DNA of 64,000 nucleotides, taken from positions 27,634-91,633 of IMG/VR virus record IMGVR_UViG_3300005688_000028. One strand, given 5' to 3'. This DNA is from a virus. Shown here in pieces: positions 7,193 through 47,941 of the stretch (position 1 is the stretch's first letter; the number at the start of each line of letters is the position of its first letter). Under the pieces are notes generated by a model. It saw only the letters and a program-made list of their open reading frames with translations, did no database searches and was not told the DNA's origin. A program made the translations under genes and the position numbers.

Positions 7193-7620
7193 GCCGTGTC
7201 ACCGGGCTCGACGAACCACGTCGCGTCGAAGTTGAGGTTCTTGCTCCACACGGTGTCCCGCGTGAACGTGCTGACGTTGCCGCTCACCGACGCCTCTTCA
7301 GCCCGGATGATCAGCTCGTCGCTGTCCACGGTGCGGAACTCGACCACCGGCGCCTCGAACTCGATCAGCCCGCGCGGCGTCTTCTGCGGCATCAGCCCAG
7401 ACTCGCGGAGCGGCTTGGTGCGAAGGAACACGAGACCGAGTTGGAACGAGCAGACGACGCCGCCATAGACGTGCTCGCGGGTGCGCGGCGTGCCGCTCTC
7501 GTTGACCGCGATCTTCTGGAAGATCTCGTTGAAGGTCGCGTTCTGCACCATGCCAACGTAGATCCCGTTGACGTACAGCCGCGAATTGACTCCGTGTGTT
7601 GCCCTATGGGTCGGCGGCAT
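7189..7620 (-). CDS. Tail tube protein
   Basis: 143 aa beta-rich, immediately after sheath; LYVNGIYVGMVQ..F.E pattern. Confidence 0.85.
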   Translation of the reverse strand: MPPTHRATHGVNSRLYVNGIYVGMVQNATFNEIFQKIAVNESGTPRTREHVYGGVVCSFQLGLVFLRTKPLRESGLMPQKTPRGLIEFEAPVVEFRTVDSDELIIRAEEASVSGNVSTFTRDTVWSKNLNFDATWFVEPGDTA

Positions 7621-16478: not shown

Positions 16479-16504
16479 GGTCTCTCTCCCTGGGTTCGTC
16501 TGGG

Positions 16505-17266: not shown

Positions 17267-17279
17267 GGGATGCTCCTGT

Positions 17280-18014
17280 TCACAGCGCCGCGATGCGCTC
17301 GAGCGCCGCGACGAGGGTTCGTTCGGGCTGCCTGCTGAGCAGGCGAAGCGCCTTGAGGTGAGCCGTCGGAATGCCCTCGGTGAGCGCGAGTCGGCGCTGA
17401 ACCTCGGGGTCGTAGGCGAGCCTCATGGCGGCTTTCATGAGGTCGGCCGGCAGTCCGGCGGGCATGCCCATCTGAGCCCCGAAGGCCGCTGCGAGCGGCA
17501 TCGCGAAACTCGACGGATTGCGCGGGGCGGCGTCGATTGCCACCGTGCGGATCGTGCAGCGCGTGATGACGTTGCCCCGCATCTCGTTGATGGAGCCCTC
17601 GACGCTGAAGCCGAGCCCCTGCCCGCGCGGGCCTTTGCAGAGGGCTTGGTGCTGCGCCCGGACCTGCTGCGCGAGCGGCAGATCCTTGAGCAACACGACC
17701 TCGATCATGTTGCCCTTGACGCCCTTGAAGAGCCCGAAGGTCCGCTTGACGCCCTGGGCGCAAACGCGGTCCGCTGAATAGGGGTGCTTGTAGTGGACGA
17801 CGCCGCGCTGGTCGTACTCGGTCCAGTCCGCGCCGTCCTGAAGCAAGACCTGGCCGTCGGCGTCCAGAAACTCGCTCGTCGCGAGCCCCTTGAGCAGCCA
17901 CGCCGGGTCAATCTCGCCCGGCCCCAATGCCTTCTGAAGCGCCTCCTCGGGAAGCGCCTCACACTCGCCCCAGAGGAGCGGGAAGGTCATCGTGTCTGTC
18001 GCCATGGCAACCAT
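17280..18014 (-). CDS. Prohead maturation protease (HK97/herpes fold)
   Basis: G.AT.E.LD.DGQ..LQDG.DW, YKH, LGFSVEG, VAI...P.NP motifs. Confidence 0.9.
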   Translation of the reverse strand: MVAMATDTMTFPLLWGECEALPEEALQKALGPGEIDPAWLLKGLATSEFLDADGQVLLQDGADWTEYDQRGVVHYKHPYSADRVCAQGVKRTFGLFKGVKGNMIEVVLLKDLPLAQQVRAQHQALCKGPRGQGLGFSVEGSINEMRGNVITRCTIRTVAIDAAPRNPSSFAMPLAAAFGAQMGMPAGLPADLMKAAMRLAYDPEVQRRLALTEGIPTAHLKALRLLSRQPERTLVAALERIAAL

Positions 18015-18047
18015 GGCGGCGATTGCAAGCTAGGTGCGCCTGCGCGC

Positions 18048-18057
18048 GTGAGCTTTC
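18048..18057 (-). promoter_or_regulatory. Late promoter motif (copy 2, protease-scaffold-capsid operon)
   Basis: GAAAGCTCAC-N20-TGCAAT-N7-ATG. Confidence 0.8.
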
Positions 18058-18070
18058 GCAGGCGTGTTTT

Positions 18071-22312: not shown

Positions 22313-22313
22313 G

Positions 22314-24185: not shown

Positions 24186-24231
24186 GCTCACCTCGTCAGG
24201 CCCGCATTGTGGGCTGGTGGCGGGGCGGGGG

Positions 24232-24241
24232 GTGAGCTTTC
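24232..24241 (-). promoter_or_regulatory. Late promoter motif (copy 3)
   Basis: GAAAGCTCAC-N20-CACAAT; overlaps upstream TGA stop. Confidence 0.75.
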
Positions 24242-27200: not shown

Positions 27201-28529
27201 GTGCCATGCCGATTCGACAAGCCGGTCCTTCTTCTCGTCGGCGTAGGCTCGACTACCAACGATGCGCTGCAACTCGGGTTTGGTGAGCTTGGCGAGCTGC
27301 GCCATGATAGCCGCCTTGTTCGCCACCGTTGCATCGAACAACCGGCGCACCTCAGCGGCAGTGATGGTGGCGTCGTTGATGCGCTGAACCATGGCGTCCA
27401 CGCCGATGGACTCCATCAAACCTTGAGCGGTCTTCTCATCGGGGGCGGGCTTCTTTGGGGCCTCCCTCTTCACCTCCCGCGCAGCCTCCTCGGCCTTCGT
27501 CGGCAGCCCCAGCCGCGCCCGGTGCTTGTCGGTCCCGTACACCGCCGCCTCCGCGCGGTCGGCCTCGAGCCGCTTCGTCGCTCGCTCCTTCTTCTCGGCC
27601 TCGTGCTTCTCGATGCCGGCCCGGTGCTCGGCATGCAGCATCGCGGAGAGCTCGGCCTTCGTGACGGTCCGGCTCTGGCCGTTCTCGTCGTGCTCAATCG
27701 TCAGCCGGTCCCCGTCCACGGCCTTGATGTGCCAGTGGCCGCCGTGGGCCATGAAGCCCGCGCCCTCGACAAAGTGCTCCTGCGCGTGGACGCCGCCGGA
27801 CCCGCGCGCGACGTGGTAGAAGTAGCGGTAACGGGGCGTCCCCTTCTTCGTGAACTTCCCGGGGATCGGCACGCGCTTGATGTAGCGGTGCGCCTTGCCC
27901 TTCATGAGCTGCGAGAAGAACGCGAGGCGCCCGTAGGCTTCGGGGAGGAGGAGCGAGCCCGGCGGAAGGCCCGCGAGCGCCTTCTTGAGCGCCTTCCCGG
28001 CGTTGTTGGGGTCAGCGATCTTGGCGCGGAAGTCGTCGATGCTCATGGTCGTGTGTCCCCCGTAGAAGCCGGGCTTCGTGTACTGCTTGCGGTAGCAGGC
28101 CAGCGCCTCGGCGACGCTCGGGAAGCCCAGCATGACCTTCTGCTCATCGTGCTCGCCGGTCTCGGGAACCCGCTGGTCCACTACTACGACCACGTCAGAC
28201 TCGAGGGCGTCACCGACGTAGACGTCGAGGCGGTCGCCATCCATGCCGCGGGCTCCCATGACACCAGCGGCCCCGCGGGCGTGTGACCTCACCTCGCCAT
28301 AGTGGGCCTGCATCGTGACCCGCCACGGCGTGCCGTTGGCGTCGACACCCTCGCGCACGTCGCCCTTGCGCTGCTCGATGTCGATCGGGATGCCCTGGAA
28401 GACCAGCGAGGCCACGAACGGGAACTCCGAACGGTTCGGCGACGGCGGCGGCATGAGGCCGGGCGAGGTTTCGCCGCGGCGGACGAGCAGGGCAGAGAGG
28501 CGGCGCGCGGCGTGGTCGAAACGGTCCAT
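24240..28529 (-). CDS. Polyvalent (DarB-like) protein: iPPase-like domain, YRYFY module, N6-adenine methyltransferase
   Basis: IEQRKG.VR.G.D..G..W...M.AHYG..DGD.LDVYVG..DEQKVMLGF; YFPTP, VLEPSAGKG, VMNPPF; start set 33 nt after late motif. Confidence 0.85.
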   Translation of the reverse strand: MDRFDHAARRLSALLVRRGETSPGLMPPPSPNRSEFPFVASLVFQGIPIDIEQRKGDVREGVDANGTPWRVTMQAHYGEVRSHARGAAGVMGARGMDGDRLDVYVGDALESDVVVVVDQRVPETGEHDEQKVMLGFPSVAEALACYRKQYTKPGFYGGHTTMSIDDFRAKIADPNNAGKALKKALAGLPPGSLLLPEAYGRLAFFSQLMKGKAHRYIKRVPIPGKFTKKGTPRYRYFYHVARGSGGVHAQEHFVEGAGFMAHGGHWHIKAVDGDRLTIEHDENGQSRTVTKAELSAMLHAEHRAGIEKHEAEKKERATKRLEADRAEAAVYGTDKHRARLGLPTKAEEAAREVKREAPKKPAPDEKTAQGLMESIGVDAMVQRINDATITAAEVRRLFDATVANKAAIMAQLAKLTKPELQRIVGSRAYADEKKDRLVESAWHSILGSFHVSSSTQWSPFSETYDAAITREVDKLTDEAIAAYSARRKKAIEEHKARIGAVIEPKTLADFKTRISLSREGERSLTPEQRVRYDELVAEDARAQAQKEHEDAHAARAKAAQERTTLAGSALATETTAKVIPGKHTKHGHNIWTVQLADRLAPDEYAKANAHAKSIGGYYSSFRGNGAIPGFVFKTDAAARQFADKFGGFGEAAQAAEPVTEPEKPGPLHGNAPARLREQADNAHARAQESLSADRKVNTARRANMAGSAEAQAMGEQAVASRMRLIADAQEAGSTKHLWGIKTRAHVEMLDNILRQAKYDRDRATREAGGKADHNETSHRAVTPEDIEHARPPEPSVHRDNLKGLAQALKDVPGAKQAAARVLKRIAQLGERDWQVKASTEQEREDFKALSDAGRLRRVETFAADDVRDQLTTWKRASEGMGIKSLPQLRAALREYVELARGAGKPKADPIKAAERALVGLKIPGYFPTPKPLADRVMQLADIKPGEKVLEPSAGKGSLADLAREQGGDVHVLEQHSGLRDVLSLKGHKVVGHDATDHAETYDKVVMNPPFDDGQDIEHVRHAFERNLKPGGKLVAIMSEGPFFRSDKKAQAFREWLEANGGTSEKNPEGSFKDSDNSTGVATRTVVVTKAPPVATVTPSEGRDPATSGGGARKYGRDDVDYDDWYSPWMKMLARSKTKHELQKMLGVATREAQKHASQHHAAIQATTSMTSQSQRRAQTGNALAGRADEAMAVRGALEIHDLFPEHAKVPSEGHDPAHTAKLDEKIARLEREVARGGPFDTQRSKAMAEAFPLGAGSMRPTGQRGGSTRSAERRMDASIDAAKRHVEAVAELRAAKARRAAYVEGRVNEQGRAIKVEPVKPVKPKAPRSPKGVHLVDSDGKALPLTPDKLRLVFGVKNEVGLSDGSRLSLDSRGDHTNIIITKPDGRQHQKAERGDDLWAGVIAMVRDHEAGRLEKATRAFGRLARLLR

Positions 28530-28549
28530 GCGGCGCAGCATCGCCGGGC

Positions 28550-30490
28550 CTACGCGGCGCGGTGAGCTTTCGTGCGCAGGCGCTTGAGCGCGAGGCGGGC
28601 GAAGGTGGCGAGCGAGCCCTTGTAGAGCTTCGACAACGCCGTCTCGGCCGCGTCTCGCGAAGCGAAGTACCAAGCCTTAGCATCCGGGTCCCAGCGGGCG
28701 CCCTTGGCCTTCAGCGCGTCCTTGTGGGCGAAGGTGTTACCGGCCACGCCCACGCGACCGCGCGACAACGGAACCATCCTGAGACCGTGCTTCTCGCCAG
28801 GCGTTGAGGCGCTGCCGCTCGGGGCCTGCGGTGTGGCTGGCTTGGGCGCAGGATTGGACGCGGCCTTGTCGCCACCACCCTTGGCCTTGTCGGCCTCGGT
28901 GAGTTCGGCCCGTGGCTGCGGCGGAACCTTGGCCTTCTGGGCCTCTTTGAAGCGGAATATCGCCTTGTCCACCTCGGGCGTCAGGGTGGCCACCTTCAGG
29001 ATGGTCCGGTCGTCGTCATATCCCAGGGTCTTGGTCGCATAGACCTTGTCGTTCTCGCGGTCGATGTAGAAGGTCCGGCCGCCGGACTTGGCGGACTCGC
29101 CATCGGTGAGGCGCTCGGCGTTGGCGGGCGGCCTCCATCTGCCGTTCTCGTCCGAGAGGCCGCCGCCGATGTCGACCTTGTGAGCCGGAACGACGCGGTC
29201 CAGCGCCTCGCGGTTGCCGGTGATGGCCCGGTCCAACAGCGCCCGGTCGGGATGCCACTGCGAGCTTTCTACCGCCTGTCTCGCATGATAGGCCGCATCG
29301 TAGGGCAACCGCTTGGACTCGTCTGCGATGTAGGCCTCGGCCTCCGCGATGTTCCGCTCGTGATTGGCCTTGAAGTAGGACGACTCCTCTTTCTCGAGCG
29401 CCTTGCGTTGGCGTTCGATGAACAGCTTTGCCAGAGCGATTCCGTCCTCACGCTGGATCTCAGCGGCGGGCTTGTCGGCGACTCGGTCGAACAGCTCCTT
29501 GTTGGCGTCGTAGTCGCGAAGCCTGTCTCGAACCAAGGTGAGGCTCGGGATCGCACGCATCCGCGTCTCGTGGCTCACGTCGAGGTCGCGCCAAGAGCCA
29601 TCCGCCGCCGCGATGCTCTCGTAGAGCTTCTTGTGCTCTGCGATGGCGTTCTTCGTGCTCTCCCATTCGCGATACGTCCGAGCCTCTTCCGGCGTCGCGC
29701 GGCGCATGGTGGCGGTCACCACCGCATGAGCATCCGCGAGGTGGTAGTCGCCCACGTCCTCCGACCACTCGCGGTCCTGCTTGGAAAGGCGCTTGGTCCG
29801 ACTCCCGACCACGACCCAGATGGACCCGTCCTTGCGCTTCTGGAAGTCTCCCGGCTCCGGCCCGGTGTCTTTGAACTGGACGGTCTCGTACTTCTCCGAC
29901 GCTGGCTTCTGCGCCTCCGCAGCCTCTTTGCGCTGCCTCAATTCGTCCGCAGACAGAAGCTCATCCTCGGTCGCTCCGAAGCCCCGCGCCCGCTTCTCCG
30001 CGGCTTCGATCTGCTTCGCTGTGCCCAGCTTGCGGACCTCGTCGAGCTCGGCCAGGGCGCGCTTCTTCTTCGCCTCGCGGTCCTTCGCGGTCTCGGCCTC
30101 CTCGGCCTTGATGCCCTCGGCATGGTGGGCTTGCAGTCGCCTCACGAGCTCGTCTTTGTGGATGCGCTCCACCTTGCCCGACTCGTCGTGCTTCACCGTG
30201 AGGTGGCCGTCCTCGTGAACGTCCTCGATGTGGTAGTGGCCTCGCTTTCCCTCGTGCTCACCCGCGAAACCAGCGCCCTTGACCCAGTGCTCGGCGTTGT
30301 CGAGACCCTTGCCGCCCTTGGCCCCGGTGAGCTTGTAGAAGTAGCGATAGCGCTGCTTGCCGCTCTTCGTGAACTTGCCGGGGATCGGAACGCGCTTGAT
30401 GTACTTGTGGTTGGCGCCCTTGATGAGCGCCATGAACATGAGCCGGCGGGCGACTCGCGGGTTGATCGGAAGCCAGATCCCCATGCTCAT
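28550..30490 (-). CDS. Putative internal virion protein: YRYFY module, unknown cargo, C-terminal DUF5710-like motif
   Basis: HKYIKRVP..YRYFY; TFAHKDALKAKGARWDPDAKAWY. Confidence 0.8.
   Translation of the reverse strand: MSMGIWLPINPRVARRLMFMALIKGANHKYIKRVPIPGKFTKSGKQRYRYFYKLTGAKGGKGLDNAEHWVKGAGFAGEHEGKRGHYHIEDVHEDGHLTVKHDESGKVERIHKDELVRRLQAHHAEGIKAEEAETAKDREAKKKRALAELDEVRKLGTAKQIEAAEKRARGFGATEDELLSADELRQRKEAAEAQKPASEKYETVQFKDTGPEPGDFQKRKDGSIWVVVGSRTKRLSKQDREWSEDVGDYHLADAHAVVTATMRRATPEEARTYREWESTKNAIAEHKKLYESIAAADGSWRDLDVSHETRMRAIPSLTLVRDRLRDYDANKELFDRVADKPAAEIQREDGIALAKLFIERQRKALEKEESSYFKANHERNIAEAEAYIADESKRLPYDAAYHARQAVESSQWHPDRALLDRAITGNREALDRVVPAHKVDIGGGLSDENGRWRPPANAERLTDGESAKSGGRTFYIDRENDKVYATKTLGYDDDRTILKVATLTPEVDKAIFRFKEAQKAKVPPQPRAELTEADKAKGGGDKAASNPAPKPATPQAPSGSASTPGEKHGLRMVPLSRGRVGVAGNTFAHKDALKAKGARWDPDAKAWYFASRDAAETALSKLYKGSLATFARLALKRLRTKAHRAA
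28562..28571 (-). promoter_or_regulatory. Late promoter motif (copy 4)
   Basis: GAAAGCTCAC-N19-GATGCT-N7-ATG. Confidence 0.75.
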
Positions 30491-32100
30491 TCTCCCTCGT
30501 CGAGACCCGGCTCGCCCTGGCCCGGCAGCCCAGCATCCATGCCCGGCACGCCCTCACCACCCTCACCTGGCATGCCGCCCATCGCGGCCGGGTCCTCGGT
30601 AGGCGTGAAGGTCCCAAGCGCCTGTAGGACGGTGCTCGACAGCGGCACGCTCAGCGCCAGAATGATTCGGTCGCGCGTCTTGTCGTCGACCTCGATCTTG
30701 TTGGCCTTGAAGTAAGCCTTGTCGATGACGGGCTTCCCGAGGCGTGACCGGCTCTCGTTCGACGAGAAGATCCCCTCGGCCTTCTTCTCGAGTTCGATCT
30801 GGGAAAGCTCCGACTCGGCGCCGTCGCCCGTGAAGCGGAACGCGAAGTCCTCATCCCAGCGGTAGATCAGGCTCTCGTTGATGCTGTCCTCGAAGGCCGT
30901 CAGCATCGGGCGCAGGCCGAACATGCGCGAGAGCTGGATCTCGTCCTTCGGGTTCGCGCCCGACAGCGGGGCGCCCGCGCCCTTGTACTCGGGCAGGCCC
31001 ACCTCGACGGGACGCATGTTCCAGTTGGCGGCCACGACCATCAGCTTGATGAGCATGAGGTCGGTGAACTCCATGTCCTTGTTCGGGTGGGCGAGGTCGA
31101 GCTTCTCGATCCGCTCGCGGCTCGCCTCTGTGCCCCCGGGGCTGAACAGCGCCATCGCCATGCGGTGCGCGTTGTTGATGCCCTTGAGCTGCGCCGTCAT
31201 CATCGCCTTGAAGGCGAGCCAGGTCTCTTTGTCGTAGTTGGCGAAGACGTTGAGCATGGTGCTCGCGTGCGTGCCGTTCCGAAAATAGACCTGATTGTAG
31301 TCGTCGGCCTCGATGTAGGCTTGCAGCGCGTCGTAAGCCTGCTGGATCTCCGGGTAGCCATACCCGAAGACCTCCATCTGCGTGCGCGGGCGGCGGACCA
31401 CGCTCAGGATCTCGTCCTCGTGCCACGTCGCCACGACCCTATCGAGGCTCGGGAGCACCTGCACGAAGCTCCCCGAGTGATAGTTGAACTCGCCCGGCCC
31501 CTCCTGCTTCTTCGGCCGCCCTCGACGCACCCACGCCGCATCCAGCGCCCGGAAGGCCCGGGGCCGCCCGCCGTTCTCGTACTGGATTTCGGCGATGGCC
31601 CAATCGTAGGTCAGCGAGTCGTCCGCGAGCATGCCCATCGTGCGATGGAAGGGCTGCAAGCGGTTGAGCATCTTCTGGATTTCCGCGAACTCCTTGCGCG
31701 CGCCCTGGCTCACCTTCGCGTCGGGGTCTCGCATCCCGAGCTGGTATCCCGGCGTCCACTGGTCGCGCGCCGGCCGGCAGTGCTCGACGAACTGCTGCTG
31801 GCGCTTGCTCTTGAAGGGCGCGCAGATACTCCGGTCGGCCGCGGCGCGAAGCGTTCGGAACGGGAGCCAGCCCGCGCCCGGGTGGCCCATGACGGGCTTG
31901 TCGCCCGAGAAGAACTTGTATTCCTCGTAAGGGTCCCAATCCGCGCCCTTGAAGGCCGCATCGTCGCCCTCGTCGGAGCGGGTCTTCAACGGGCTCTCGG
32001 GCTCGCCCCGGACCGACATCGCAGACTCGCGGCGCGCCTTGAGAAGCGGGTTCTCAGCGTCCGAGCCAACGAGCAACCTGTGCAGAAACGAACGCGCCAT
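30487..32100 (-). CDS. Portal protein
   Basis: DSLTYD...E, GYGYPEI, YN..YF.NG, KDMEF, GLRPML..ED.IN, NE.R..LG motifs. Confidence 0.92.
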   Translation of the reverse strand: MARSFLHRLLVGSDAENPLLKARRESAMSVRGEPESPLKTRSDEGDDAAFKGADWDPYEEYKFFSGDKPVMGHPGAGWLPFRTLRAAADRSICAPFKSKRQQQFVEHCRPARDQWTPGYQLGMRDPDAKVSQGARKEFAEIQKMLNRLQPFHRTMGMLADDSLTYDWAIAEIQYENGGRPRAFRALDAAWVRRGRPKKQEGPGEFNYHSGSFVQVLPSLDRVVATWHEDEILSVVRRPRTQMEVFGYGYPEIQQAYDALQAYIEADDYNQVYFRNGTHASTMLNVFANYDKETWLAFKAMMTAQLKGINNAHRMAMALFSPGGTEASRERIEKLDLAHPNKDMEFTDLMLIKLMVVAANWNMRPVEVGLPEYKGAGAPLSGANPKDEIQLSRMFGLRPMLTAFEDSINESLIYRWDEDFAFRFTGDGAESELSQIELEKKAEGIFSSNESRSRLGKPVIDKAYFKANKIEVDDKTRDRIILALSVPLSSTVLQALGTFTPTEDPAAMGGMPGEGGEGVPGMDAGLPGQGEPGLDEGE

Positions 32101-36523: not shown

Positions 36524-38242
36524 CTACGAAAACCGCCAAGCCTTGTCACTCTTCGGCACCTCCTCATCACGAGCCCCCTCGGGAAGCGTCCGCTTCAACA
36601 GCCCCCGCATCGCCGGGTCCACGCCATCGGCCTTCGGCGAGCTCACGTTCGCCTTCTTCACCGCGGCGACCTCCTCCTCGGTGAGCCCATAGGCCACGAG
36701 CTCGTCGTCCTCGAGCGGGTCGCCCGCCATGCCGACGGCATAGGTGAAGGTGTTGGTCGTGCGCCCGCAGACGTCGCCGATCCACGCCGCCATCGCCCGG
36801 TCGCCCGTGTGGCTCTCGGGGTCGTAGCTCCGCAGCTCCTCGAGCAGCTTCCCGATCTCGTCCGTGCCCGGCCTCAGCGCGCCCGACTCGTCCCGGTAGC
36901 TCGGCACAATGACGAGCCCTTGCGACCAGCGCGCGGCCCAGCTCTCGAAGCCCAGCTCCGCGTGGTGTTTGAGCTTCGCCGTCGTGTTCAGCGCCCGCAC
37001 CGGGACGTGGGGCGCGTCCACCGCGAGGATCTGCCGCATCCAGTCCTGTACGCCCGCGTCCTCGACGACGATGAAGGACCCGTAGCGCTCATGGTGGTCG
37101 ATGAGCTTCTGGCGCGCCTCGGCGGCCGTCCACTTGCCCGACTCCACGTTGAGGATCTGGACGCACCGAATGGGCTTGCCCTTCGCGTCCAGGCCGAAGT
37201 CCTTGAGGCCCCAATAGCTCGGAGGCCCCACAAGCAGGTCCACGAGGCCCCAGAGGTCGCTCTTCTTGCCCTTCTTGCCGCCCGCGGGGTCGAGCGCCGA
37301 CACAGTGAACACGCCCTCGGGGAGCTTTGTAGCGTCGAGCGTCACCTGCGGCACCAGCCCCTCGCCGAGCTTCATGCCGTGCTGGATGAACGCTTCGGCG
37401 AAGATGCTGTCACCCTCGCGCTTGGGGATGCACCGAAGGTCTTGGTCCTTGCGGGCTGGTGAGTAGCGGTCGCAGTCCTCTTGCGGCCAGATCACCGGGT
37501 AGAGCGTGCGGTCGAGCTCGTCGATCGCCGTCATGAGGTAGAGGTTCCATCCGAACTTCTCAGCGAGGATCCAGCCCGTATCCCAGCGCCGAAAGCAGTT
37601 CTGGACGAAGATCCGCTTGCCCCACGCCTCGACGCGGCTCTCGTTGTCCATGATGAACTCGGCCGACTTCTCGCAGAGGTAGCGAGACATCGACACGCGA
37701 GGGTCGATCATGTCGTCGAAGTAGTCGTCAACCGAGCGAAAGCCCTGGTTTCCGGGCTCAGAGCCGCACGCCCACACCGATGGCTCTTTCGGGTGGATTC
37801 CCGGCCCTCGGTCGACCGTCCATTCGCTCTCGGTCCACTTCATCGCGCTGGGTCGCAACTCCGGGTAGACCAGTGCGAGGCGGCGACTGCTTTCGATGAA
37901 GCCGCGGATCTTGAGTGTGTGCCGCGTGGCGTTGCCCTCGTCCGCGCTCCACACCTTGGCTCGGTAGCGCTTGGGGTCCTCACCCAGCTTGCACAGGGTG
38001 CGCATGTAGGTGATGAGCGTCGTCTTGCCGAGCTTGGGCGCCGCGATGATCACGGTGCGGTCGTGCTTCTCGACGAACTCCATCATCTCGCGATGGCCGT
38101 CGTAGAGCACCAGCGGCTTGCCCGTGGTCTCCGAGCGCAGGCAGAACTCGGCGGCCTTGCACACGTCTTTGCGCGCTTCGGCCGCGAGCTTCGCCTCGAG
38201 CTCGGCGAGGCGGTACGCACGTTCTTGGGCGGCACTCGACAC
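36524..38242 (-). CDS. terL: Terminase large subunit
   Basis: Walker A AAPKLGKTT, atypical Walker B DDYFDD, nuclease ALDPA, VVEDAG.Q, HTGDRAMAAW. Confidence 0.92.
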   Translation of the reverse strand: MSSAAQERAYRLAELEAKLAAEARKDVCKAAEFCLRSETTGKPLVLYDGHREMMEFVEKHDRTVIIAAPKLGKTTLITYMRTLCKLGEDPKRYRAKVWSADEGNATRHTLKIRGFIESSRRLALVYPELRPSAMKWTESEWTVDRGPGIHPKEPSVWACGSEPGNQGFRSVDDYFDDMIDPRVSMSRYLCEKSAEFIMDNESRVEAWGKRIFVQNCFRRWDTGWILAEKFGWNLYLMTAIDELDRTLYPVIWPQEDCDRYSPARKDQDLRCIPKREGDSIFAEAFIQHGMKLGEGLVPQVTLDATKLPEGVFTVSALDPAGGKKGKKSDLWGLVDLLVGPPSYWGLKDFGLDAKGKPIRCVQILNVESGKWTAAEARQKLIDHHERYGSFIVVEDAGVQDWMRQILAVDAPHVPVRALNTTAKLKHHAELGFESWAARWSQGLVIVPSYRDESGALRPGTDEIGKLLEELRSYDPESHTGDRAMAAWIGDVCGRTTNTFTYAVGMAGDPLEDDELVAYGLTEEEVAAVKKANVSSPKADGVDPAMRGLLKRTLPEGARDEEVPKSDKAWRFS

Positions 38243-38274: not shown

Positions 38275-38284
38275 GTGAGCTTTC
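38275..38284 (-). promoter_or_regulatory. Late promoter motif (copy 6, terL)
   Basis: GAAAGCTCAC-N20-CCCAAT-N6-GTG. Confidence 0.75.
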
Positions 38285-38288
38285 GCCG

Positions 38289-39956
38289 CTACTTCGCCCC
38301 GCCATCCTCGAACGACGTCACCGGCCCCTGCCAACCCTGCTTACGCAGCTCGCCCTCGATGTCCGGGGGCGTCCAGCCCGGCGGCTTGAGCTTCTTCCCG
38401 GTCGCGGGGTCCACGGGTCCAGAGCGCTTCGCGATGTTGGCCTTGTGGACGGCCGCCGCGATGGGCGCGCCGTTGACGCCGCACTCCTGGCGCGTGCCCT
38501 CAATGACGTAGTCGAGATCCGCGAGCGCATCCACGAAGGCTGGGAGGTTGACGTCGATGCTCGCCGGATTCTCGATGATGCGCCAGACCAGCGCGCGCGC
38601 GCGATCCATGTCCATGCGCCCACTGCCACCAGTTGCATCGCGCAGGAGCTCGAAGAACTCCTCGGCGATGAGCTTGAGGCGCAGCCTCACGGCGTCGTCG
38701 GGAGGCACACACGGGCTCGTCGGACTGGGGCGCCCGACCATGGCCTGGAACTCGCGGACCTGCTTGGCGAGGGTCGGCTGGGCCTTGACCGCCAGGTGCT
38801 CATTGAGCGCCAGAGCGATGCGCGCCGGAAGGTTCGGGTCCTTGGGGTCGACATCGGTGATGTTGCAGAGGAGCCGCCAGTCACCAACGGGACGCCGCCC
38901 ACGGTAGAGCGCCCACTGGCCTTCTGGCCCGTGCCGCTCGGCGCTGTAGGGTGCTTCCGGCAGGGCCTTGGTTGCGCTGTCGATGGCCCATGCCTCGGCC
39001 GAGCGCATGAGCGGTTGTAGGCCGCGCTCGCGAGACTCGTCCGCCCACACGCGCTTGCAGTGCTCGAACTCCTCATCGGTCAACGCGCGACGCTGCTTGA
39101 GCAGATCCATCGGGCGCGGGAGGGCCGGCCCGGGGTCGGAGGGCAGGCCCGTATCAGCATCGGGAAGCTCACGCTTCGTGAACTCGAACCCGCCCTTACC
39201 CGGCAACGCTTCGGCCACTGCGTCAAGGCCCGCCTTCGCAGCCTCCGCAATGGGCTTGACGAGCGGGTTCTTCGCCAACTCTTGGGCGACCCCGAAGGCC
39301 AGAGGCCCGTTACTCTTCATCAGGGTCACGAGGGCTTCGGGGGGTGGCCCGTTCAGAAACGTCTCCATGTCGAAGGCGTCCTCCCGCCCCTCCTCGACTG
39401 GCAACACTGCGGCCAATGCATCGAGGGTCGCCTTCGCAGCGTCGGCGATGGGCTTGAGGAAGTGGAGCTTCACCAACTCGCGAGCGGTCTTGATGTCCGG
39501 CTCCCGCTCGAACGGCACGGGGTCGCCGAGCACGTTGACCGGGCCAACAGCCGCCGCGATCTGCGTCATCGTGTCGTCGAAGCCCTTGTCTAAGGCCTCG
39601 TCCATCATCGCCGTCATGCGCTCCCGCCCCTCCTCGATGGTGTCGGGCAGCGGCTCCGCGCTCGCCACCACCCCGCCACGAAGCGTGTCACCCGCCACCT
39701 TGCGCCGATGCACGCGCAGAAGCACGAAGTAGCCGATGAGGTCCGCTACCACGTCCTCGTCGTCCTCGCCCGCGCACCGCGACCAGCGCGAGAGCTTGTC
39801 GTCGATTCGCACGCGGATCTGCTCGTCGATGGGCGCCTTGCTCGCGATCCTCAGAGGGTCTAGGCACGAATCGCCATACTTCTTGTTCTTCTCGAGCAGC
39901 ATCGCCTTGATGGCGTCGCACTCCTCACGTATCAACCTCGCCGACAACTCACTCAT
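38289..39956 (-). CDS. Nmad1/DUF1599-like domain fused to MazG-superfamily NTP pyrophosphohydrolase
   Basis: LLEKNKKYGDS..IRVRIDDKLSR..DLIGY; VREFQ..LRLKLIAEE..EL..DALADLDYV..VHKAN.AK..KPPGW.PPD. Confidence 0.8.
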   Translation of the reverse strand: MSELSARLIREECDAIKAMLLEKNKKYGDSCLDPLRIASKAPIDEQIRVRIDDKLSRWSRCAGEDDEDVVADLIGYFVLLRVHRRKVAGDTLRGGVVASAEPLPDTIEEGRERMTAMMDEALDKGFDDTMTQIAAAVGPVNVLGDPVPFEREPDIKTARELVKLHFLKPIADAAKATLDALAAVLPVEEGREDAFDMETFLNGPPPEALVTLMKSNGPLAFGVAQELAKNPLVKPIAEAAKAGLDAVAEALPGKGGFEFTKRELPDADTGLPSDPGPALPRPMDLLKQRRALTDEEFEHCKRVWADESRERGLQPLMRSAEAWAIDSATKALPEAPYSAERHGPEGQWALYRGRRPVGDWRLLCNITDVDPKDPNLPARIALALNEHLAVKAQPTLAKQVREFQAMVGRPSPTSPCVPPDDAVRLRLKLIAEEFFELLRDATGGSGRMDMDRARALVWRIIENPASIDVNLPAFVDALADLDYVIEGTRQECGVNGAPIAAAVHKANIAKRSGPVDPATGKKLKPPGWTPPDIEGELRKQGWQGPVTSFEDGGAK

Positions 39957-40663
39957 CACCCACCACCCTCCGGGCCACCCAGGCCCCACCGCCGTTCCAA
40001 CTCTTCAAGCTCCGCGTCCTCAATCGGGTCCCGCGTCGCCTCCATCTCGTCCTCGACGTCCTGCGGCTCCACCCTCACGAGCCCGCGCCGCGCGAACAGG
40101 CTCGCGAGCGCCGCCTTCTCGTCCTCGGTTGCGACGTCCAGCGCCTCTTGCGGGAACACGAAGCGCCCATTCACGACCCGCAGCTTGCGCTCCATGAGGT
40201 CGGCCGCGAGCTTCGTCATGCGGGCTTCCTGAACCTTCTTTTCGGCCTCGGCCGCCGCCGCCTTGCGACGGTGCTCCGCAATCGCCAGCGCCTCTTGCCG
40301 CCGCGCCAGAAGGTCCGCCGCGCGGTAGTCCGTCCGTGCCGCGTTCAACAACGTCACCTCGGCGACGCTCCCGCGCTCGGCCTCGGCTTGTTGCAGTTGC
40401 AGGTAGAAGTGCCGGTAGTGGTAATCGTCGTCGCCGTAGTCGGTCCGCTTGCCCCTGGCAATCCACGCCTTCACGGTGGCGATGTGGACGCCCGTGAGCT
40501 TCGCGGCCTTGTCGCGGCTCATCACCCCGCCGCGGATGCACTCGAGGAACGCTTTGCGGGCCTCCTTGTCGAACTCGCGCCAGGGCTGCAAACGCGGGCG
40601 GCCGAGCCAGTGAAACGGCTCCTCGGTCTCGTCCTCGTCGTCGCCCCCTGCCACGTTGTTCAC
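39956..40663 (-). CDS. Putative terminase small subunit
   Basis: HTH AAKLTGVHIATVKAWIARG then FY..L.QAEAE; one gene upstream of terL. Confidence 0.6.
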   Translation of the reverse strand: MNNVAGGDDEDETEEPFHWLGRPRLQPWREFDKEARKAFLECIRGGVMSRDKAAKLTGVHIATVKAWIARGKRTDYGDDDYHYRHFYLQLQQAEAERGSVAEVTLLNAARTDYRAADLLARRQEALAIAEHRRKAAAAEAEKKVQEARMTKLAADLMERKLRVVNGRFVFPQEALDVATEDEKAALASLFARRGLVRVEPQDVEDEMEATRDPIEDAELEELERRWGLGGPEGGG

Positions 40664-40887
40664 GCCTCCGCTCCCGAAGTATGCGTTGCGGATGCCGGCT
40701 TGCCCAACGCCCGCGCGTCATCCGGCACCCGCAACGCCAGCTCGCGACACGACGGGCACCTTACCCGTCGCCCCTCGACTGCCCAATCTCGCGCACGCGC
40801 CGCCTCATAGACGCAAGCGTAGCTCAACGGCGTGCCGGGCACGTTGTTGATGCGCTTGCAGTGGTGGCAGACGAGCGAGATCGTCAT
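40660..40887 (-). CDS. Small Zn-finger protein
   Basis: CHHC...W......CPSC. Confidence 0.7.
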   Translation of the reverse strand: MTISLVCHHCKRINNVPGTPLSYACVYEAARARDWAVEGRRVRCPSCRELALRVPDDARALGKPASATHTSGAEA

Positions 40888-41477
40888 TCATCACCACCCA
40901 GAGGCCAAGACTCCGAGTCGGAAAACGTCTCGTGGACGTTCGGCGGACCTACGAGCTCGATGACGTCCACCTCCTCGCGCCGCGTGCAATCGACGTAGTT
41001 GCAGGTGTTGCCGTATGGATGATCGCGGCACATCCGGGGGCGCGTCTCGTATATCTTGCAGTCGCCCGACTCGGAGTCATGGTGCTCGCATGCGTACCAC
41101 TCCAGCGGGGAGCGGAAGCGATGCCCGGCGGGGGTCAGGATCGGGAAACGGCCCAGCGGGCGCACCATCCGCGCGACGATGGCGATGTCGTCGTCGGTGT
41201 AGCGCCGCAAGTGGCTCGGCCATGGCTCACCGCGCTCCGCACCCTCAGCCGCCGACTTCAGTTCGTCAACATACTCCGGCGTGAGCGGCAGCGTGAACGC
41301 TTGGCAGCAGTGTCCCGAGCAACGTCCAACCTCGCGAGTGATGCGACGGACGCCAAGCCAGGGCGGCTTGGTGGGCCATGGGATATGGAATAGGCCGAAT
41401 GCCGATGCAAGGCCCGGGAGCTCGGTCGCATCGCCGATCGTGTCGTCGATCGCTTTGACGGAGAGGTGTGCTGTCAT
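40884..41477 (-). CDS. YkgJ-family cysteine-cluster protein
   Basis: CSGHCC...C...CKIYETRPRMCRDHP. Confidence 0.85.
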   Translation of the reverse strand: MTAHLSVKAIDDTIGDATELPGLASAFGLFHIPWPTKPPWLGVRRITREVGRCSGHCCQAFTLPLTPEYVDELKSAAEGAERGEPWPSHLRRYTDDDIAIVARMVRPLGRFPILTPAGHRFRSPLEWYACEHHDSESGDCKIYETRPRMCRDHPYGNTCNYVDCTRREEVDVIELVGPPNVHETFSDSESWPLGGDE

Positions 41478-43402
41478 TGGCGCCGTGTCTCCTTCGCGAG
41501 TCGCTTCGCCTCGTCCAGCGGCACCTCCACGAAGCGCATGTCTTCCTGCTCGAATGATTCGGGACACGTCAGGCCGCGCGTCCCCATCATGAACCGCCCC
41601 GCCAGGTGGTAGATGAGCTTCCACCATCCCAGCTCGGCCTTGAATCCCTCGAGCCCACAGACGTGCGGCTTGCACCGCTCGGCGTGGGGATGCGTGTAGT
41701 TGACGCAGCCGTCGAACTTCAACCAGCCGGTGGCCCACACCTCGGCCCCGGCCATGTCGGCCGTCGCTTCCAGTCCGCTCGTCGAGTCGATCTTACAGAC
41801 CTCGTAGGCATCGGGGAATCCGTCGGTGCCGCCATAGTGGAGCACGTTGAAGAGGGCGAAGTGAACGCTTGCGGCTCCGCCCTCGTCGTCGTCACCCCAG
41901 AGGAGCACCACCACGCCCATGTCGACGCAGGAGAACGCTTCGCGTCGCTTGCCCTCGCCCCACATCTCGGAACACCCATAGTCGCCGATATGGGCATTGC
42001 GGCGCTCGGGCGTCAGCGGGAACGGGACGGGGCTGTACTCGACGCGCTCGCGCTCCGGCACAAGGGCCTCGGCGATGTCGTGAGCGGTGATGCTATCGCC
42101 GGCCGGGAAGAGCAACACCTTCACGTCGTCCGCGTCGCCAGCGCCCGCGATGAACTTCTTGATGTCGAGCCGGAGGTTGAAGCGGTCGAGCCACCCGGCC
42201 TTGTTGGTGCGGACTGCGATGATGCGCTTGTAGCCCTCGGGCACCGGCTCCAGGTCGAGGCGCGTCACCTCGACGCCGGGCGGCGTGTTGGGCACGTCCT
42301 CGACGCGGAGGCCCCGAGCCATCACCACTTCATCGGCGTCCACGATTTCGCGCAGACGGTCGCGAGCGGCATCGCTCCATGCCTCTTCCGCCCGCGTGTC
42401 GACGGTGATGATGCGCTTGTGGTCGGGCGCCTTCGGTGGGAACTCGCAGACGCCGAGCGTTTCGCCGGGTTGCAGCATCGCGGCGGACATCCCATCGCCG
42501 ACCCTGTCGATCACGGCCCGCCTGAAGGCGCCCCACGTCTCGGCGTCCATGTTGGAATTGACCACCATGAGACGCTTGTGACCCGCTGGCAGGGGTGGGA
42601 AGTCGAGCGTGCGCACAAGCTCCACGACGGGGCTCTGCGGCTCGCGCTCGTCCTCGACCGGCTCCACCAGCCGAAGGCGAGGCTTCGCCTTCTCGTCGAG
42701 CTCGGCCACGACACGCGGGTCCATCTCGACGAAGCCCCCGAACTCGTCCTTTCCGGCCGACCAATGCACCTCGACCTCGTCCATGGCGACGGTCACACCG
42801 CGGCGCTCGACCATATCGACAAGTTTGGCCTGCGCGGCCTTGGCGACGCTGGCGAGGTTGTCCAGGGTGCCGTTCGCGACCTCGGGAGCGCCAAAGGCGC
42901 TGTCCATGATCTCGGCCATCTCTTCGCGCCAGGGGCGGAAACGGGCGGGTAGCTTCGCGGGCTCGGCCGCGTCCTCGACACGCTCGAACTTCACGACGTA
43001 GTCGGGGCTGAAGCACTTGTGCAGCGCCTCGAGCGCGACGTGTGACACCCGCGACCGCGACACGGTCGGGATGAGCTTCCCGGCGTCGTCGTAGCGGTCC
43101 GTCGTCTTCTGGATGAGTCCGCACATCGCGAACCCGAGCGGTGCCACGTTGTTCAAGGCGCGCTTGGCCTCTTGATCGTCGTTCGGACCCAGGTCGACGA
43201 AGCCCTCGCCCAGAACCACCGGCCGCCCGTCCACGACCGACTTGGACAGCTTGATGGTGCCCACCGCGCACGTCCCGGGCAGGTCCAGTGTCACCGGGAC
43301 CTCGTCGTCCCATGTCATGCCCTCGACCAGAGTCACCAGACCGCCATTCCCGCCCGGGGTCTCGTCCGTGACGATCCCGCTCACCTTCCACCTTCCCATC
43401 AT
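41474..43402 (-). CDS. Mosaic protein: inactive prohead-protease-like domain, sheath-C-like segment, three repeats (first portal-like)
   Basis: By-eye alignment to the window's own protease and portal (see findings). Confidence 0.7.
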   Translation of the reverse strand: MMGRWKVSGIVTDETPGGNGGLVTLVEGMTWDDEVPVTLDLPGTCAVGTIKLSKSVVDGRPVVLGEGFVDLGPNDDQEAKRALNNVAPLGFAMCGLIQKTTDRYDDAGKLIPTVSRSRVSHVALEALHKCFSPDYVVKFERVEDAAEPAKLPARFRPWREEMAEIMDSAFGAPEVANGTLDNLASVAKAAQAKLVDMVERRGVTVAMDEVEVHWSAGKDEFGGFVEMDPRVVAELDEKAKPRLRLVEPVEDEREPQSPVVELVRTLDFPPLPAGHKRLMVVNSNMDAETWGAFRRAVIDRVGDGMSAAMLQPGETLGVCEFPPKAPDHKRIITVDTRAEEAWSDAARDRLREIVDADEVVMARGLRVEDVPNTPPGVEVTRLDLEPVPEGYKRIIAVRTNKAGWLDRFNLRLDIKKFIAGAGDADDVKVLLFPAGDSITAHDIAEALVPERERVEYSPVPFPLTPERRNAHIGDYGCSEMWGEGKRREAFSCVDMGVVVLLWGDDDEGGAASVHFALFNVLHYGGTDGFPDAYEVCKIDSTSGLEATADMAGAEVWATGWLKFDGCVNYTHPHAERCKPHVCGLEGFKAELGWWKLIYHLAGRFMMGTRGLTCPESFEQEDMRFVEVPLDEAKRLAKETRRQ

Positions 43403-43857
43403 CCACCTCCACGGGGCGGCAGAACCGCCATTGAACGCACGTCCATCTTCGCGATGTCGCCCTGAGCGTCCCGCTCGTGGACGAGCCCGTTGACGCCCAG
43501 CTCCACAATCGGAACCTCTCGGCCGTCGCGCTTGCGCAGGGACTCCAAGAACGCGCCCTTGAGCCCATCCAGAAGCCGCACCCACTCGCGACGCAGCGCC
43601 TTCAGCGACGCCCGGCGCAGCTTGCGCGGGATGACGGCGCCGTACTGCGCCCGCAGTCTCTCATCGCGGCGCTCGACCCAAAGATCGAACGGGCTCGTGA
43701 ACGCCATCGTCTCCGCGGGGATGCTCAGTGCCGGAATGGGCGCGTTGTAAGAGCGGATGATCTCGGCCAAGGCGTCGGGCGCCGCACGAACGCCGGCCAT
43801 GAGGACGGGCTGGCCGTTGATGTAGATCCGGGCGTTGACGCCCCGATGCGTGCTCAT
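43399..43857 (-). CDS. Hypothetical protein with tail-tube-like N-terminus
   Basis: THRGVNARIYING vs tube THGVNSRLYVNG. Confidence 0.65.
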   Translation of the reverse strand: MSTHRGVNARIYINGQPVLMAGVRAAPDALAEIIRSYNAPIPALSIPAETMAFTSPFDLWVERRDERLRAQYGAVIPRKLRRASLKALRREWVRLLDGLKGAFLESLRKRDGREVPIVELGVNGLVHERDAQGDIAKMDVRSMAVLPPRGGG

Positions 43858-44850: not shown

Positions 44851-45350
44851 TGCGCACCTCCACCCAGGCCGCCGCTCGTTGTGCGCTCACCACGCGCATT
44901 TTCCGTGCGGGTTGGCAAATCGCTGTGCCTCGGAGTGAACCGCCGCTCCGTGCTGAACCCGAACGACTCGACGAAGCGCCGCGCCTCGTCCCAGCCCTCG
45001 GCCACGCTTGCGGCCCACCCGTCTTCTCGCAGCGCGGCAATCCACGCCTTCTGCTCTTCGCTCGTCACGCTCCCGTGCCGGCGCTTCATCTCCACCGCGA
45101 TCCCGCGCACTTCGGGCCGCCACGGGCACCGCCGCGTGATGACGAGGTCGGGCACGCCCTTGCGCAACCCCTGCCCCTTCGCGATGGCCCCGCCGATACG
45201 CCCTCGGTTGCCCTCGTTCGGGACGTGGAAGTAACCCTTCGGACCCACGGCCAGCTCAAGCCACTGCACGAACGCGGCCTGTTCCTGGCGCTCCAATGGC
45301 GCTGGGATCCTCGGCGTCTTCGGCGCCCGCTTCGCTCGGACTGTCGTCAT
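44847..45350 (-). CDS. VRR-NUC nuclease (Holliday-junction resolvase-like)
   Basis: FHVPNEG, G..KGVPDL, VEMKR..G..SEEQKAW. Confidence 0.9.
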   Translation of the reverse strand: MTTVRAKRAPKTPRIPAPLERQEQAAFVQWLELAVGPKGYFHVPNEGNRGRIGGAIAKGQGLRKGVPDLVITRRCPWRPEVRGIAVEMKRRHGSVTSEEQKAWIAALREDGWAASVAEGWDEARRFVESFGFSTERRFTPRHSDLPTRTENARGERTTSGGLGGGAQ

Positions 45351-45694
45351 GCCTCGCCCCCTCGACCACCGAGCACGGCCAGCGCGACGCTCTGCACGCT
45401 GACGCCCTCGACGGCCGCGACCTCAGCGCACCATCCGGGCTCACTCGTGTCCACCGCCGCCCCATCCCGCTCCCAGCAACCCGGGAGGTCGGCGACTGGC
45501 TCCCAACCCGCCGACTCGAGCCGAAGGTGCAAAGCGTCGCTCGGTGGCGCTTTCGATTCGCTCAGGGTGCCGGGTTTCTTCGCGCTGTCGCCCCGTCTGG
45601 CGCCCTCGGAGTACCCTTGTGGCTTGAAGGGTCCTCGACGCGCCACATGGGCATTATCCTGGCCTTCTCGTCGATCTGCTCGTTTCGTGCCCAT
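45347..45694 (-). CDS. Hypothetical protein
   Basis: Fills gap in coupled operon. Confidence 0.55.
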   Translation of the reverse strand: MGTKRADRREGQDNAHVARRGPFKPQGYSEGARRGDSAKKPGTLSESKAPPSDALHLRLESAGWEPVADLPGCWERDGAAVDTSEPGWCAEVAAVEGVSVQSVALAVLGGRGGEA

Positions 45695-45695
45695 T

Positions 45696-47129
45696 TTACG
45701 CGGCTCCCCGGGCCTTGGTGCCCTGCGCGGTGATTCGCAGCGGGCTCTGGGGCAGCTTGCGCCGCTCCAGCTCGCGCTCGACGGCCGGGACGACGAAGCT
45801 GCCCCAAAGCCCGTCGAGCGTGGCCTGGCGGAACTCGGGCGTCGGCGCGGCGAGGACTAGCTCGCCCGCATGGCTCACGCCGAGCGCGGTCAGTGGCGCG
45901 ATGCACTCGGCGTGCTCGTCGCGGTCCAGGTAGCCCGGGCCTTTCATGCTCGCGGCCGCTGCGGCCCAGACGGCGTCCCACGTCGCGTCCGGGGTGATGG
46001 CGCCCTTGGGCTCCGGCGAGGTGTTGGGCGGCGAGCGCTCGAACACGGGCGGCGTAGCGCCGGGCTCGGGCCGGTATCGCGGCGTGTAGCGGTCGCCGGG
46101 GGCGACTTCGGCTTGGCGCTTCTTCGCCTCGCGCTTCGCTCGGTCGCTCCGCTCGGCCTCGACGAACTGGCACTCGCGGCGAAGCCAGGACACGAGGTCG
46201 GTTCTGTACCCGACCCACGGCTTCGACGCCTCGCACATGCGGCTCACGGCCTCGCCGAACTCCGCGGGGAACTCCATCGCGACGCGCTTCGCGTCGTCGA
46301 CGGTCCAGGCGTGGCCCATGGGGCGCGCTTCGCGGAGCCGGTCGTACCACGCCAGCCCGGCGTTCTCGCACTCGTGGGTCGGCCACTCGGGGGGAGGCTT
46401 CGGGATATGGGGCCGCTCGGCGGACAGGTCCACTGGCGGCGCGGTGGGGGTCGCGCGCCCGCCCGCGAAGAAGCTCTCTCTTTTTGGCTCAGAAAGAGAG
46501 AGTGTCTTACCTCTCGGCTCTAGGGCTTGCGTGAGCCCTAACCCAGACGCAAGCGTTGCTAAGGGCTTGCTAGGGTCGGCCCCTAGCGTTTGCTTAGGGC
46601 TCGACGGTAGCACCCCGTCGCCCACGGTGGCCGTAGCAAAGTCCCTAGCCAGCGGTAGCTCGTGCTTAGGGGTCGCTACGGCGACGGTTGTTCCCTCCGC
46701 TTCGGTCTCGTCCGTAGCCGGCCTTAGCGTTTGCTTAGGAGTCGCTTCGGTCGACGCAGGCAGGAAGCGGCCCTTGTTGTTGCGCTGGAGTGCCTGCCGA
46801 GTCGCCGCCGACTTGAGCCCACCCTTGCGTCCCGCTTCGCGCCGCGCCTCGTTGACGCGCTCGTAGCGGCCGACCCCCCTGACCCTCAGACTGCCGTTGG
46901 GCATGGGCTCCACAAAGTTGAAGGCTTCGAGGACTTCTGCGAGGTCCTTGCACGGGCCGAAGAGGCCCCTGAGCTCGAGGGGCCGCACCTCTTCGACCTT
47001 GTGCCTGTAGCAGTGCGCCCACAAGCTCAGCATGCCGTGGGAGACGATTTCGACCGGCAGGCCCGTGGCGCGAGCGATGAGCGGGAAGGTGTTGAAGGCG
47101 TCGAGCTCGACTTGGATATAGCTGCTCAT
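45696..47129 (-). CDS. Replication initiator (lambda O-like) with C-terminal DnaA_N-like domain
   Basis: Follows DnaC; REAGRKGG; internal repeats; LVLAAPTPEF C-terminus. Confidence 0.75.
   Translation of the reverse strand: MSSYIQVELDAFNTFPLIARATGLPVEIVSHGMLSLWAHCYRHKVEEVRPLELRGLFGPCKDLAEVLEAFNFVEPMPNGSLRVRGVGRYERVNEARREAGRKGGLKSAATRQALQRNNKGRFLPASTEATPKQTLRPATDETEAEGTTVAVATPKHELPLARDFATATVGDGVLPSSPKQTLGADPSKPLATLASGLGLTQALEPRGKTLSLSEPKRESFFAGGRATPTAPPVDLSAERPHIPKPPPEWPTHECENAGLAWYDRLREARPMGHAWTVDDAKRVAMEFPAEFGEAVSRMCEASKPWVGYRTDLVSWLRRECQFVEAERSDRAKREAKKRQAEVAPGDRYTPRYRPEPGATPPVFERSPPNTSPEPKGAITPDATWDAVWAAAAASMKGPGYLDRDEHAECIAPLTALGVSHAGELVLAAPTPEFRQATLDGLWGSFVVPAVERELERRKLPQSPLRITAQGTKARGAA
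46474..46739. repeat. Putative replication origin: iterons TAGCNNNTGCTTAGG plus purine/pyrimidine inverted repeat
   Basis: Copies at 46584, 46656, 46725; CTCTCTCTTT/AAAGAGAGAG at 46474/46493; local GC drop. Confidence 0.7.
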
Positions 47130-47941
47130 GCTTCCGCCCCCGCTTCCATCGCCTGAACGGCGCGGTAGTCCTCGCCCGTCATATGGACCACCTCGCACGC
47201 GGCCTTGAATCTCGACACCAGGCGCTCGCCGATCCGCCCCTCGAGACTCTCGGCCCCGGAGGCCAGCGGCTCCATGAGGTAGTTGGTCGTCACGATGAGC
47301 GGGGCCTCGGCGTTGTAGCGGCGGCTGATCACCTGATCGATGATGCTCAGCTCCCAGGGCGTTCCCTGCCCGCGCCCGAGGTCGTCGATGATGAGCAGCG
47401 ACGCGTCGGTCAGCGCTGCGACGATGGTGTGCTCGGTCTCGCCCCCCGCGTCGCGCGGCTTCCCGAAGGTCGCCCGGATGCTCGCGAGGAGCCCTTGGTA
47501 GTCGACGAAGCGCACGGGGATCCCGTGACCCAGCGTGAGGCGCGCCGCGAGCCCGCAGACGAGGTGCGTCTTTCCGAGCCCATAGCCTCCCATGAGAACG
47601 AGCCCGCGTGTGACGCGCTTGACGTTGTCCTTGGGGATGAACCTCCCGATTGCCTGCGCGGCCGCGTCGATGCTCGGGTGACGCTGGCGCTTGAAGCTGC
47701 GATTCCCGAGGTTCTTGTTCGCGTAGTGGCCGGGGATCTGCGCCCGGTTGAACATGGTGGCGCGGTTGAGCGTGGCGACGCATTCGCAGGTCTGCGCCAC
47801 CTCGTAGAGCCCTTCGCGCTTGACGACGAAGCGGTGTCCCTTGCAGGTCTTGCACTCGCGCTTGCACTCGCAGACTCGCGCGGTCGCGGTGTGTCCGGGC
47901 TGGACGTGAAAGCCGACGTCGTTGCAGAGGTTGCAGCTCAT
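47126..47941 (-). CDS. DnaC/IstB-like ATPase (helicase loader)
   Basis: Cys-rich N-terminus, GGYGLGKTHL, LLIIDDLG, RYN..IVTTN, IGERLVSR. Confidence 0.92.
   Translation of the reverse strand: MSCNLCNDVGFHVQPGHTATARVCECKRECKTCKGHRFVVKREGLYEVAQTCECVATLNRATMFNRAQIPGHYANKNLGNRSFKRQRHPSIDAAAQAIGRFIPKDNVKRVTRGLVLMGGYGLGKTHLVCGLAARLTLGHGIPVRFVDYQGLLASIRATFGKPRDAGGETEHTIVAALTDASLLIIDDLGRGQGTPWELSIIDQVISRRYNAEAPLIVTTNYLMEPLASGAESLEGRIGERLVSRFKAACEVVHMTGEDYRAVQAMEAGAEA

Follow-up and report, generated by a model that had tools for sequence, protein, structure and literature searches.

A 64,000-nt window of DNA was analysed, which forms the right-hand 64 kb of the 91,633-bp IMG/VR record IMGVR_UViG_3300005688_000028, and we focused on one minus-strand gene in it that encodes a 642-amino-acid (aa) protein, P0001, hereafter the target. 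The record bears direct terminal repeats and was obtained from bioreactor sludge; the window has a G+C content of 67%, and partial copies of the phage also occur in wastewater and freshwater metagenomes from other studies. The gene and its parts are as follows, where pLDDT denotes the predicted local distance difference test score of the structural models.

41474..43402 (−), whole target gene, 642 aa (P0001), intact open reading frame (ORF)
42968..43402 (−), N-terminal domain, residues 1–145, probable HK97-type prohead-protease fold without catalytic Ser/His
43118..43135 (−), motif GFAMCG, residues 90–95, with Ala where the protease GFS has Ser
42683..42934 (−), compact alpha/beta domain, residues 157–240, modelled best of all parts (pLDDT about 90)
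42059..42607 (−), three tandem repeats of about 55–65 aa each (residues 266–321, 319–378 and 382–448)
42458..42571 (−), portal-like stretch in repeat 1, residues 278–315, judged a chance similarity
41573..41926 (−), C-terminal Cys/His domain, residues 493–610, phrog_33479, function unassigned

The composition of the ORF is of the coding type (G+C at third codon positions, 0.84). The start at 43402 has a ribosome-binding site (GGAGGTGG), its ATG overlaps the stop codon of the upstream gene (ATGA), the stop codon of the target overlaps the ATG of a downstream 197-aa gene, and relatives begin with the same residues as the target protein. The gene is genuine and intact, with translational coupling to the neighbour on either side.

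The fold of the N-terminal domain was evaluated by structure search in the ESM Atlas, whose model is that of the exact target protein. For residues 1–150, all ten rows were prohead-protease clusters (template modelling (TM) score by query, 0.69–0.74; 127–138 residues aligned), comprising Peptidase_S78, protease–MuF fusion and protease–capsid fusion clusters, and the Atlas feature search with the same residues listed S78 (5 matches) and S77 (2 matches). A control segment of the same model, residues 453–642, reached TM scores of 0.28–0.37 and unrelated families. With these values, the HK97-protease fold that the original prediction had assigned to the first ~140 aa is probably borne out. The predicted order of the domain is strand, turn, strand, three strands, one helix, a strand from GFA and a long strand pair, which we take to be what an S78 protease would show. 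In a BFVD search, named prohead proteases accounted for 4–5 of the 50 best rows with either AlphaFold model, at poor E-values, giving a weak and partly independent hint of a protease fold in the models. Structural comparison of the segments thus yielded a protease fold for the N-terminal domain in the Atlas, but the AlphaFold2 models of this domain were too poor to confirm it (pLDDT 33–58). These models (pLDDT 44) had no protease among their matches to solved structures, a Foldseek search of the PDB with the whole model gave no match at E ≤ 1e-3, VIA-align of both models listed no protease and showed no clear fold for any part, and neither the target nor the profile of the N-domain or of the C-domain had a match in sequence and profile searches of the PDB. 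On balance, we consider it fairly probable that residues 1–150 adopt the predicted HK97-type prohead-protease fold, and we read the domain as a putative pseudo-protease.

The catalytic residues were compared in the target and four relatives. In all five sequences GF[AG]MCG stands in place of the GFS of the protease, with Met, Cys and Gly invariant. The segment that corresponds to the His strand has no His, nor is one conserved elsewhere in the domain, and the invariant residues are instead Cys94, Cys130, Trp5 and Trp31. Replacement of the Ser and absence of the His, both of which had been predicted from the target sequence, therefore extend to the relatives, with Ala or Gly in 5/5 sequences. 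If the fold reading is right, the domain probably has neither catalytic Ser nor catalytic His, although the motif alignment by which these positions are equated is not statistically secured. In the phage's real protease both catalytic residues, His77 and Ser137, were invariant in its family:

17280–18014 (−), real prohead protease P0002, 244 aa, phrog_1028 (E 6.5e-8 and 1.7e-8)

The domain had been described as a dead copy of this very protease that follows it motif by motif. The motifs quoted for the comparison are indeed present in the ORF at 17280–18014, but the similarity itself was at noise level. By Smith-Waterman alignment, the N-terminal 145 aa matched the real protease at z = 2.0–2.2, little better than shuffled sequences (25/500 shuffles were equally good), and the real protease ranked 3/81 among the phage proteins for this segment. 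Profile–profile alignment by hhalign (5 N-domain sequences against 7 protease sequences) gave P = 0.03–0.04 and a probability of 1.4–1.7% over the first 28–29 columns and failed in global mode; the sole local match (P = 0.03) lay in the equivalent N-terminal strand–turn–strand of the real protease. As all of these measures were in the noise, the domain is not recognisable as a copy of the protease, and no recent duplication can be claimed. Searches with family profiles were likewise negative: the target had no Pfam match at E ≤ 1, the PF04586 profile found nothing genome-wide at E ≤ 10, and the phrog_1028 profile found the real protease alone in the phage and missed the target.

These results bear on a different explanation, in which a small, unrelated beta-barrel makes up the N-terminal domain, the protease likeness of this domain is an artefact of one predictor, and the target is an orphan multi-domain early protein with the phrog_33479 domain alone recognisable. 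All sequence and profile tests being at noise level is what this explanation would lead one to see. On the other hand, the Atlas matches were uniform and specific, the control region behaved differently, and the real protease of the phage is likewise invisible to Pfam S78 and PDB profiles, so the negative profile searches of the domain carry little weight. We regard an unrelated barrel as rather unlikely and retain the protease fold as the reading of the domain.

Relatives of the target were few. Among 5.8 billion protein clusters, two near-full-length matches were found, namely its own cluster (100% identical) and P0004 (88% identity). The identity between the target and P0004 was unevenly distributed, 66.7% in the N-domain and 98.5% in residues 161–642, and contigs aligned to the gene break at the same domain border, suggesting from the alignments that the N-domain has either been exchanged by recombination or is evolving fast. 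Fragments and split forms were collected by an exhaustive HMMER search. P0007 (153 aa) consists of the N-domain alone; in P0005 and P0008 a separate ORF starts at residue 157, that is, with the alpha/beta domain; and P0009 is the C-domain alone, on contigs of up to 120 kb, so that across these three relatives the middle part and the C-domain are found in ORFs of their own. In P0036 (NCBI, 415 aa) the N-domain is joined to another insert, Cys-rich and of ~150 aa, and to two repeats, and the C-domain is missing. Because it carries this different insert and no phrog_33479 domain, the N-domain can be said to combine with alternative modules. Collections of related loci contained none for the target, the N-domain, terL, P0036, P0008 or P0009, and cultured phages gave no match to the target and weak C-domain matches in jumbo phages.

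The three tandem repeats proposed in the original prediction are real. Each of them has D-[LF]-P-P-x-P-x-G-[HY]-[KR]-R at its start, with a strand coming next, and a repeat hidden Markov model (HMM) built from the target and its relatives scored each copy at 7e-19 to 3e-23; the third repeat weakly resembles KH-type domains. In the same prediction the target was also thought to contain pieces resembling two virion proteins:

30487–32100 (−), portal, PF04860
7634–9628 (−), sheath, phrog_279

The quoted portal motifs do occur in the portal ORF, and repeat 1 matched it at z = 4.3 on the picked segment, but 18/200 shuffles did as well for the whole protein, and the repeat segment ranked the portal 2/81 at z = 2.9, with an unrelated protein ahead of it (z = 4.2). 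The repeat HMM did not find the portal, the portal-like motif was absent from the same repeat in P0005, P0008 and P0036, and the target had no Pfam or PHROG portal match. On these alignments the portal likeness is chance. No sheath likeness was seen either, the sheath ranking 22–53 of 81 for the target segments, and the target had no significant match to the phage's sheath. Paralogy between the target and a 590-aa gene after terL was suggested by BLASTP (E 0.05), but was rejected with a domain HMM (E 2.5).

The C-terminal domain is the part with a named family. By phmmer it was tied to 20 relatives (E 5e-31 to 1e-3), including stand-alone proteins of 112–175 aa, and its invariant residues are G..K-W-D-G-C ... 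H-x-C-G. phrog_33479 was matched by 13/21 members of the alignment (best E 2.6e-16), whereas the direct score of the target was just E 0.2, so that membership comes via the relatives; by this profile match and the conserved D-G-C ... H-x-C-G core, the sequence of the C-domain belongs to phrog_33479. The spacing of the conserved residues would suit a metal site or, alternatively, a catalytic dyad. In the models the domain had pLDDT values of 74–94, and its top BFVD match was a 160-aa uncharacterised phage protein (E 1.5e-7). Relatives have small early genes around them on one viral contig, L002, and, judging from a match that is weak (E 3e-3), in Ralstonia jumbo phage RP12; the related-locus search returned only one distant C-domain relative, that in L002. 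A 'head maturation protease' near the L002 relative is of ClpP/SppA type with a signal peptide and is not relevant. A MazG-like gene is also found near this relative. A BLASTP match of 38 columns between the C-domain and the phage protease around the catalytic His (pairwise E 0.006, z = 4.25) was rejected as chance, because members of the C-domain family do not conserve the His in question and one such z is expected among 324 comparisons.

The phage is myovirus-like, with head, packaging and tail genes on the minus strand, and the time at which the target is made was judged from its place among these and the neighbouring genes:

43399..43857 (−), upstream coupled gene, 152 aa, joined to the target by the ATGA overlap and itself overlapping a 128-aa gene
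40884..41477 (−), downstream coupled gene, 197 aa, CxxCxxCC metal-chelating domain, PF03692 (E 9e-8)
38289–39989 (−), MazG-fusion gene, 566 aa, with a C-terminal MazG/PRA-PH nucleotide pyrophosphohydrolase domain, phrog_671 (E 1.4e-20)
38275..38284 (+), last exact late-promoter box GTGAGCTTTC, just upstream of terL
36524–38242 (−), terL
16505–17266 (−), probable scaffold, 253 aa
14940–16508 (−), capsid

Downstream of the target and in the same direction follow the 197-aa gene, a 75-aa gene, a terS-like helix-turn-helix gene, the MazG-fusion gene, the late box and terL. Upstream of the target, this strand also carries a resolvase-like gene and the genes for a DnaC-like helicase loader and for a DNA methyltransferase, and the target belongs to a chain of ATGA-overlapping genes downstream of these three. 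The late box GTGAGCTTTC, read on the plus strand, occurs in 6 exact copies ahead of the head, packaging and tail units; with single mismatches counted, there were 13 matches against 3.7 expected. No exact copy lies ahead of the target, and the last one (38275) comes after it, so the gene stands outside the structural, late units, just as had been predicted. Because of its neighbours and the lack of a preceding late box, we infer from gene position that the target is part of a pre-late, replication-type operon, and production of its protein probably precedes expression of the late head and tail genes. The real protease gene is located between the cargo genes, of which the minus-strand head region has four large ones, and the scaffold and capsid genes; the target lies 23 kb from it and upstream of the last late box, and thus does not have the placement of a late-expressed head-module gene.

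Two of the neighbours are of note in themselves. A PF03692 CxxCxxCC gene is an unusual neighbour of terS, and in the MazG-fusion protein a 400-aa part of unassigned type precedes the MazG/PRA-PH domain. In the head region (14940–30490, minus strand), the motif [LM]-x-K-[AG] has 9 occurrences in the scaffold (253 aa) and 5 in the protease; it stands directly before short basic C-terminal tails in 3/4 cargo proteins and is also found near the N-termini of capsid, portal and cargo proteins. This distribution in the sequences is consistent with a candidate maturation cleavage motif.

We interpret the target as a modular four-part accessory protein that is made pre-late and has a non-cutting, protein-binding role, and we give this reading a probability of roughly 55%. 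The N-domain would act as a peptide- or protein-binding module that holds its ligand without cutting it, and the remaining modules would act on, or tether, whatever the N-domain holds. A partner protein from the host, or one that the phage produces ahead of head assembly, would be more likely than anything in the procapsid interior. Several points weigh against this reading: the expression timing is deduced from gene position alone, Pfam, PHROGs and PDB profile searches of the N-domain see no protease, the match of the domain to the phage's own protease is within noise, and the fold claim consequently rests mainly on the model of one predictor. Should the predicted fold be mistaken, the gene would encode no more than a rare accessory protein of orphan type. 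The fusion of the protease-like domain to other modules may point to its partner, the occurrence of the modules as separate genes in relatives supports a common function, and the natural variants differ almost solely in the protease-like domain.

A second possibility is that the target is a head-assembly factor, its dead domain pairing with the real protease or binding cleavage sites in the scaffold or capsid, and thereby delaying proteolysis until the prohead has been assembled, or bringing the remainder of the protein into the head as cargo. Regulation of an active enzyme by a dead paralog is commonly seen, the protease fold would be shared with the enzyme to be regulated, and the operon also has the terS-like gene, with terL following. 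Nevertheless, the target has zero [LM]-x-K-[AG] motifs (scaffold 9, protease 5), no cargo-type C-terminal tail and no late box, and for these three reasons we do not think of it as a head component. In addition, the N-domain is 67% identical between variants against a 95%-identical protease homologue, which may or may not come from the same variant. A role in head assembly thus appears improbable next to that of a pre-late binding protein.

The original prediction had gone further in viewing the target as a candidate pre-emptive decoy for bacterial defences. Prohead proteases were reported in a 2026 preprint to activate the anti-phage system CBASS, which signals through cyclic oligonucleotides, by cleaving a loop of the CD-NTase (PMC12991175), and because CBASS is switched on by this cleavage, a non-cutting protease look-alike made early is an obvious candidate for a counter-measure or regulator. 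As an immune decoy or shield, the dead protease domain would be made ahead of the real protease and would occupy host sensors of prohead protease, for example by attaching to the CD-NTase activation loop without cleaving it, which provides a concrete target. The pre-late position of the gene and a domain that is probably a non-cutting protease fold agree with such a role, as does the N-domain, which between near-identical phages has diverged far more quickly than the other parts of the gene, in the manner of an arms-race interface; yet this divergence is explained equally well by module exchange via recombination. The portal and sheath mimicry behind the idea turned out to be chance, and the other three domains have no role in the model. 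A small boost comes from the coupled upstream gene. Its 152-aa product starts T-H-R-G-V-N-A-R-I-Y-I-N-G and matches the N-terminus of the product of a 143-aa gene (7189–7620, −) that directly follows the sheath gene and is the probable tail tube; over the first ~15 residues the match had z = 5.4–5.5 (0/1000 shuffles), clearly at the top of 80 proteins. This likeness is not a recent duplication, as the DNA differs at many synonymous sites. In sum, we regard the decoy as speculative and quite improbable. Its wider form, in which dead head-protease copies are early-made phage shields that bind, but do not cleave, the bait loops of sensors (e.g. CBASS CD-NTases) which the real protease would set off, are fused to effector modules and, beside a gene with a tail-tube N-terminus, make up a set of virion-protein mimics, is more improbable still, and the non-cutting binding protein remains our preferred reading.

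Inactive relatives of prohead proteases have been described before. SPN3US gp117, 201phi2-1 gp206 and PhiPA3 gp143 are 'cryptic', diverged and truncated prohead-protease paralogs in phiKZ-like giant phages (PMC5694885). The target is like the SPN3US gp117 type in being a second, presumably inactive protease-fold protein that is encoded apart from the real protease and has no assigned function. It differs in that gp117-type proteins are stand-alone, 136–145 aa in length, and of the T4 gp21/S80 lineage, whereas the protease-like domain here heads a 642-aa four-part protein, and in that they keep the Ser and Asp, whereas the target N-domain has lost the Ser. They are also linked to their own protease by HMM–HMM comparison at E 1e-9 to 3e-17; the target has no such profile link, hhalign giving P = 0.03–0.04 and a probability of <2%. 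With the HK97 gp4 type (MEROPS S78, PF04586), the target probably shares the fold, as predicted for residues 1–150, and the sequence of its strands and one helix, but not the Ser/His, the profile match, the gene position between portal and capsid, the capsid-targeting tail or the self-cleavage motifs. Protease/MuF head fusions in the Atlas (PF04233 + PF04586) are similar in that a protease-fold domain is joined to variable modules; they are, in contrast to the pre-late and apparently catalytically dead target, late head-morphogenesis proteins with an intact protease. Members of phrog_33479 share with the target C-domain the invariant D-G-C ... H-x-C-G core and the size, but they are stand-alone proteins of 112–175 aa, and the copy in the target is fused behind three modules. 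Dead protease paralogs as such are therefore already known, and the present case is set apart by the four-module fusion, the lost profile similarity and the module shuffling.

Farther upstream of the target, a stretch of ~1.8 kb without a confident gene was observed (45351–47125), and an Rfam search of 45300–47200 gave no match. It contains three copies of a partly palindromic 23-nt element, CCCTAGCGTTTGCTTAGGGCTCG, at 46581–46744 with a spacing of 72 and 69 nt, adjoined by an A/T-rich hairpin (46468–46508). The region of the CCCTAGCGTTTGCTTAGGGCTCG copies may be a control region or an origin that heads the leftward operon.

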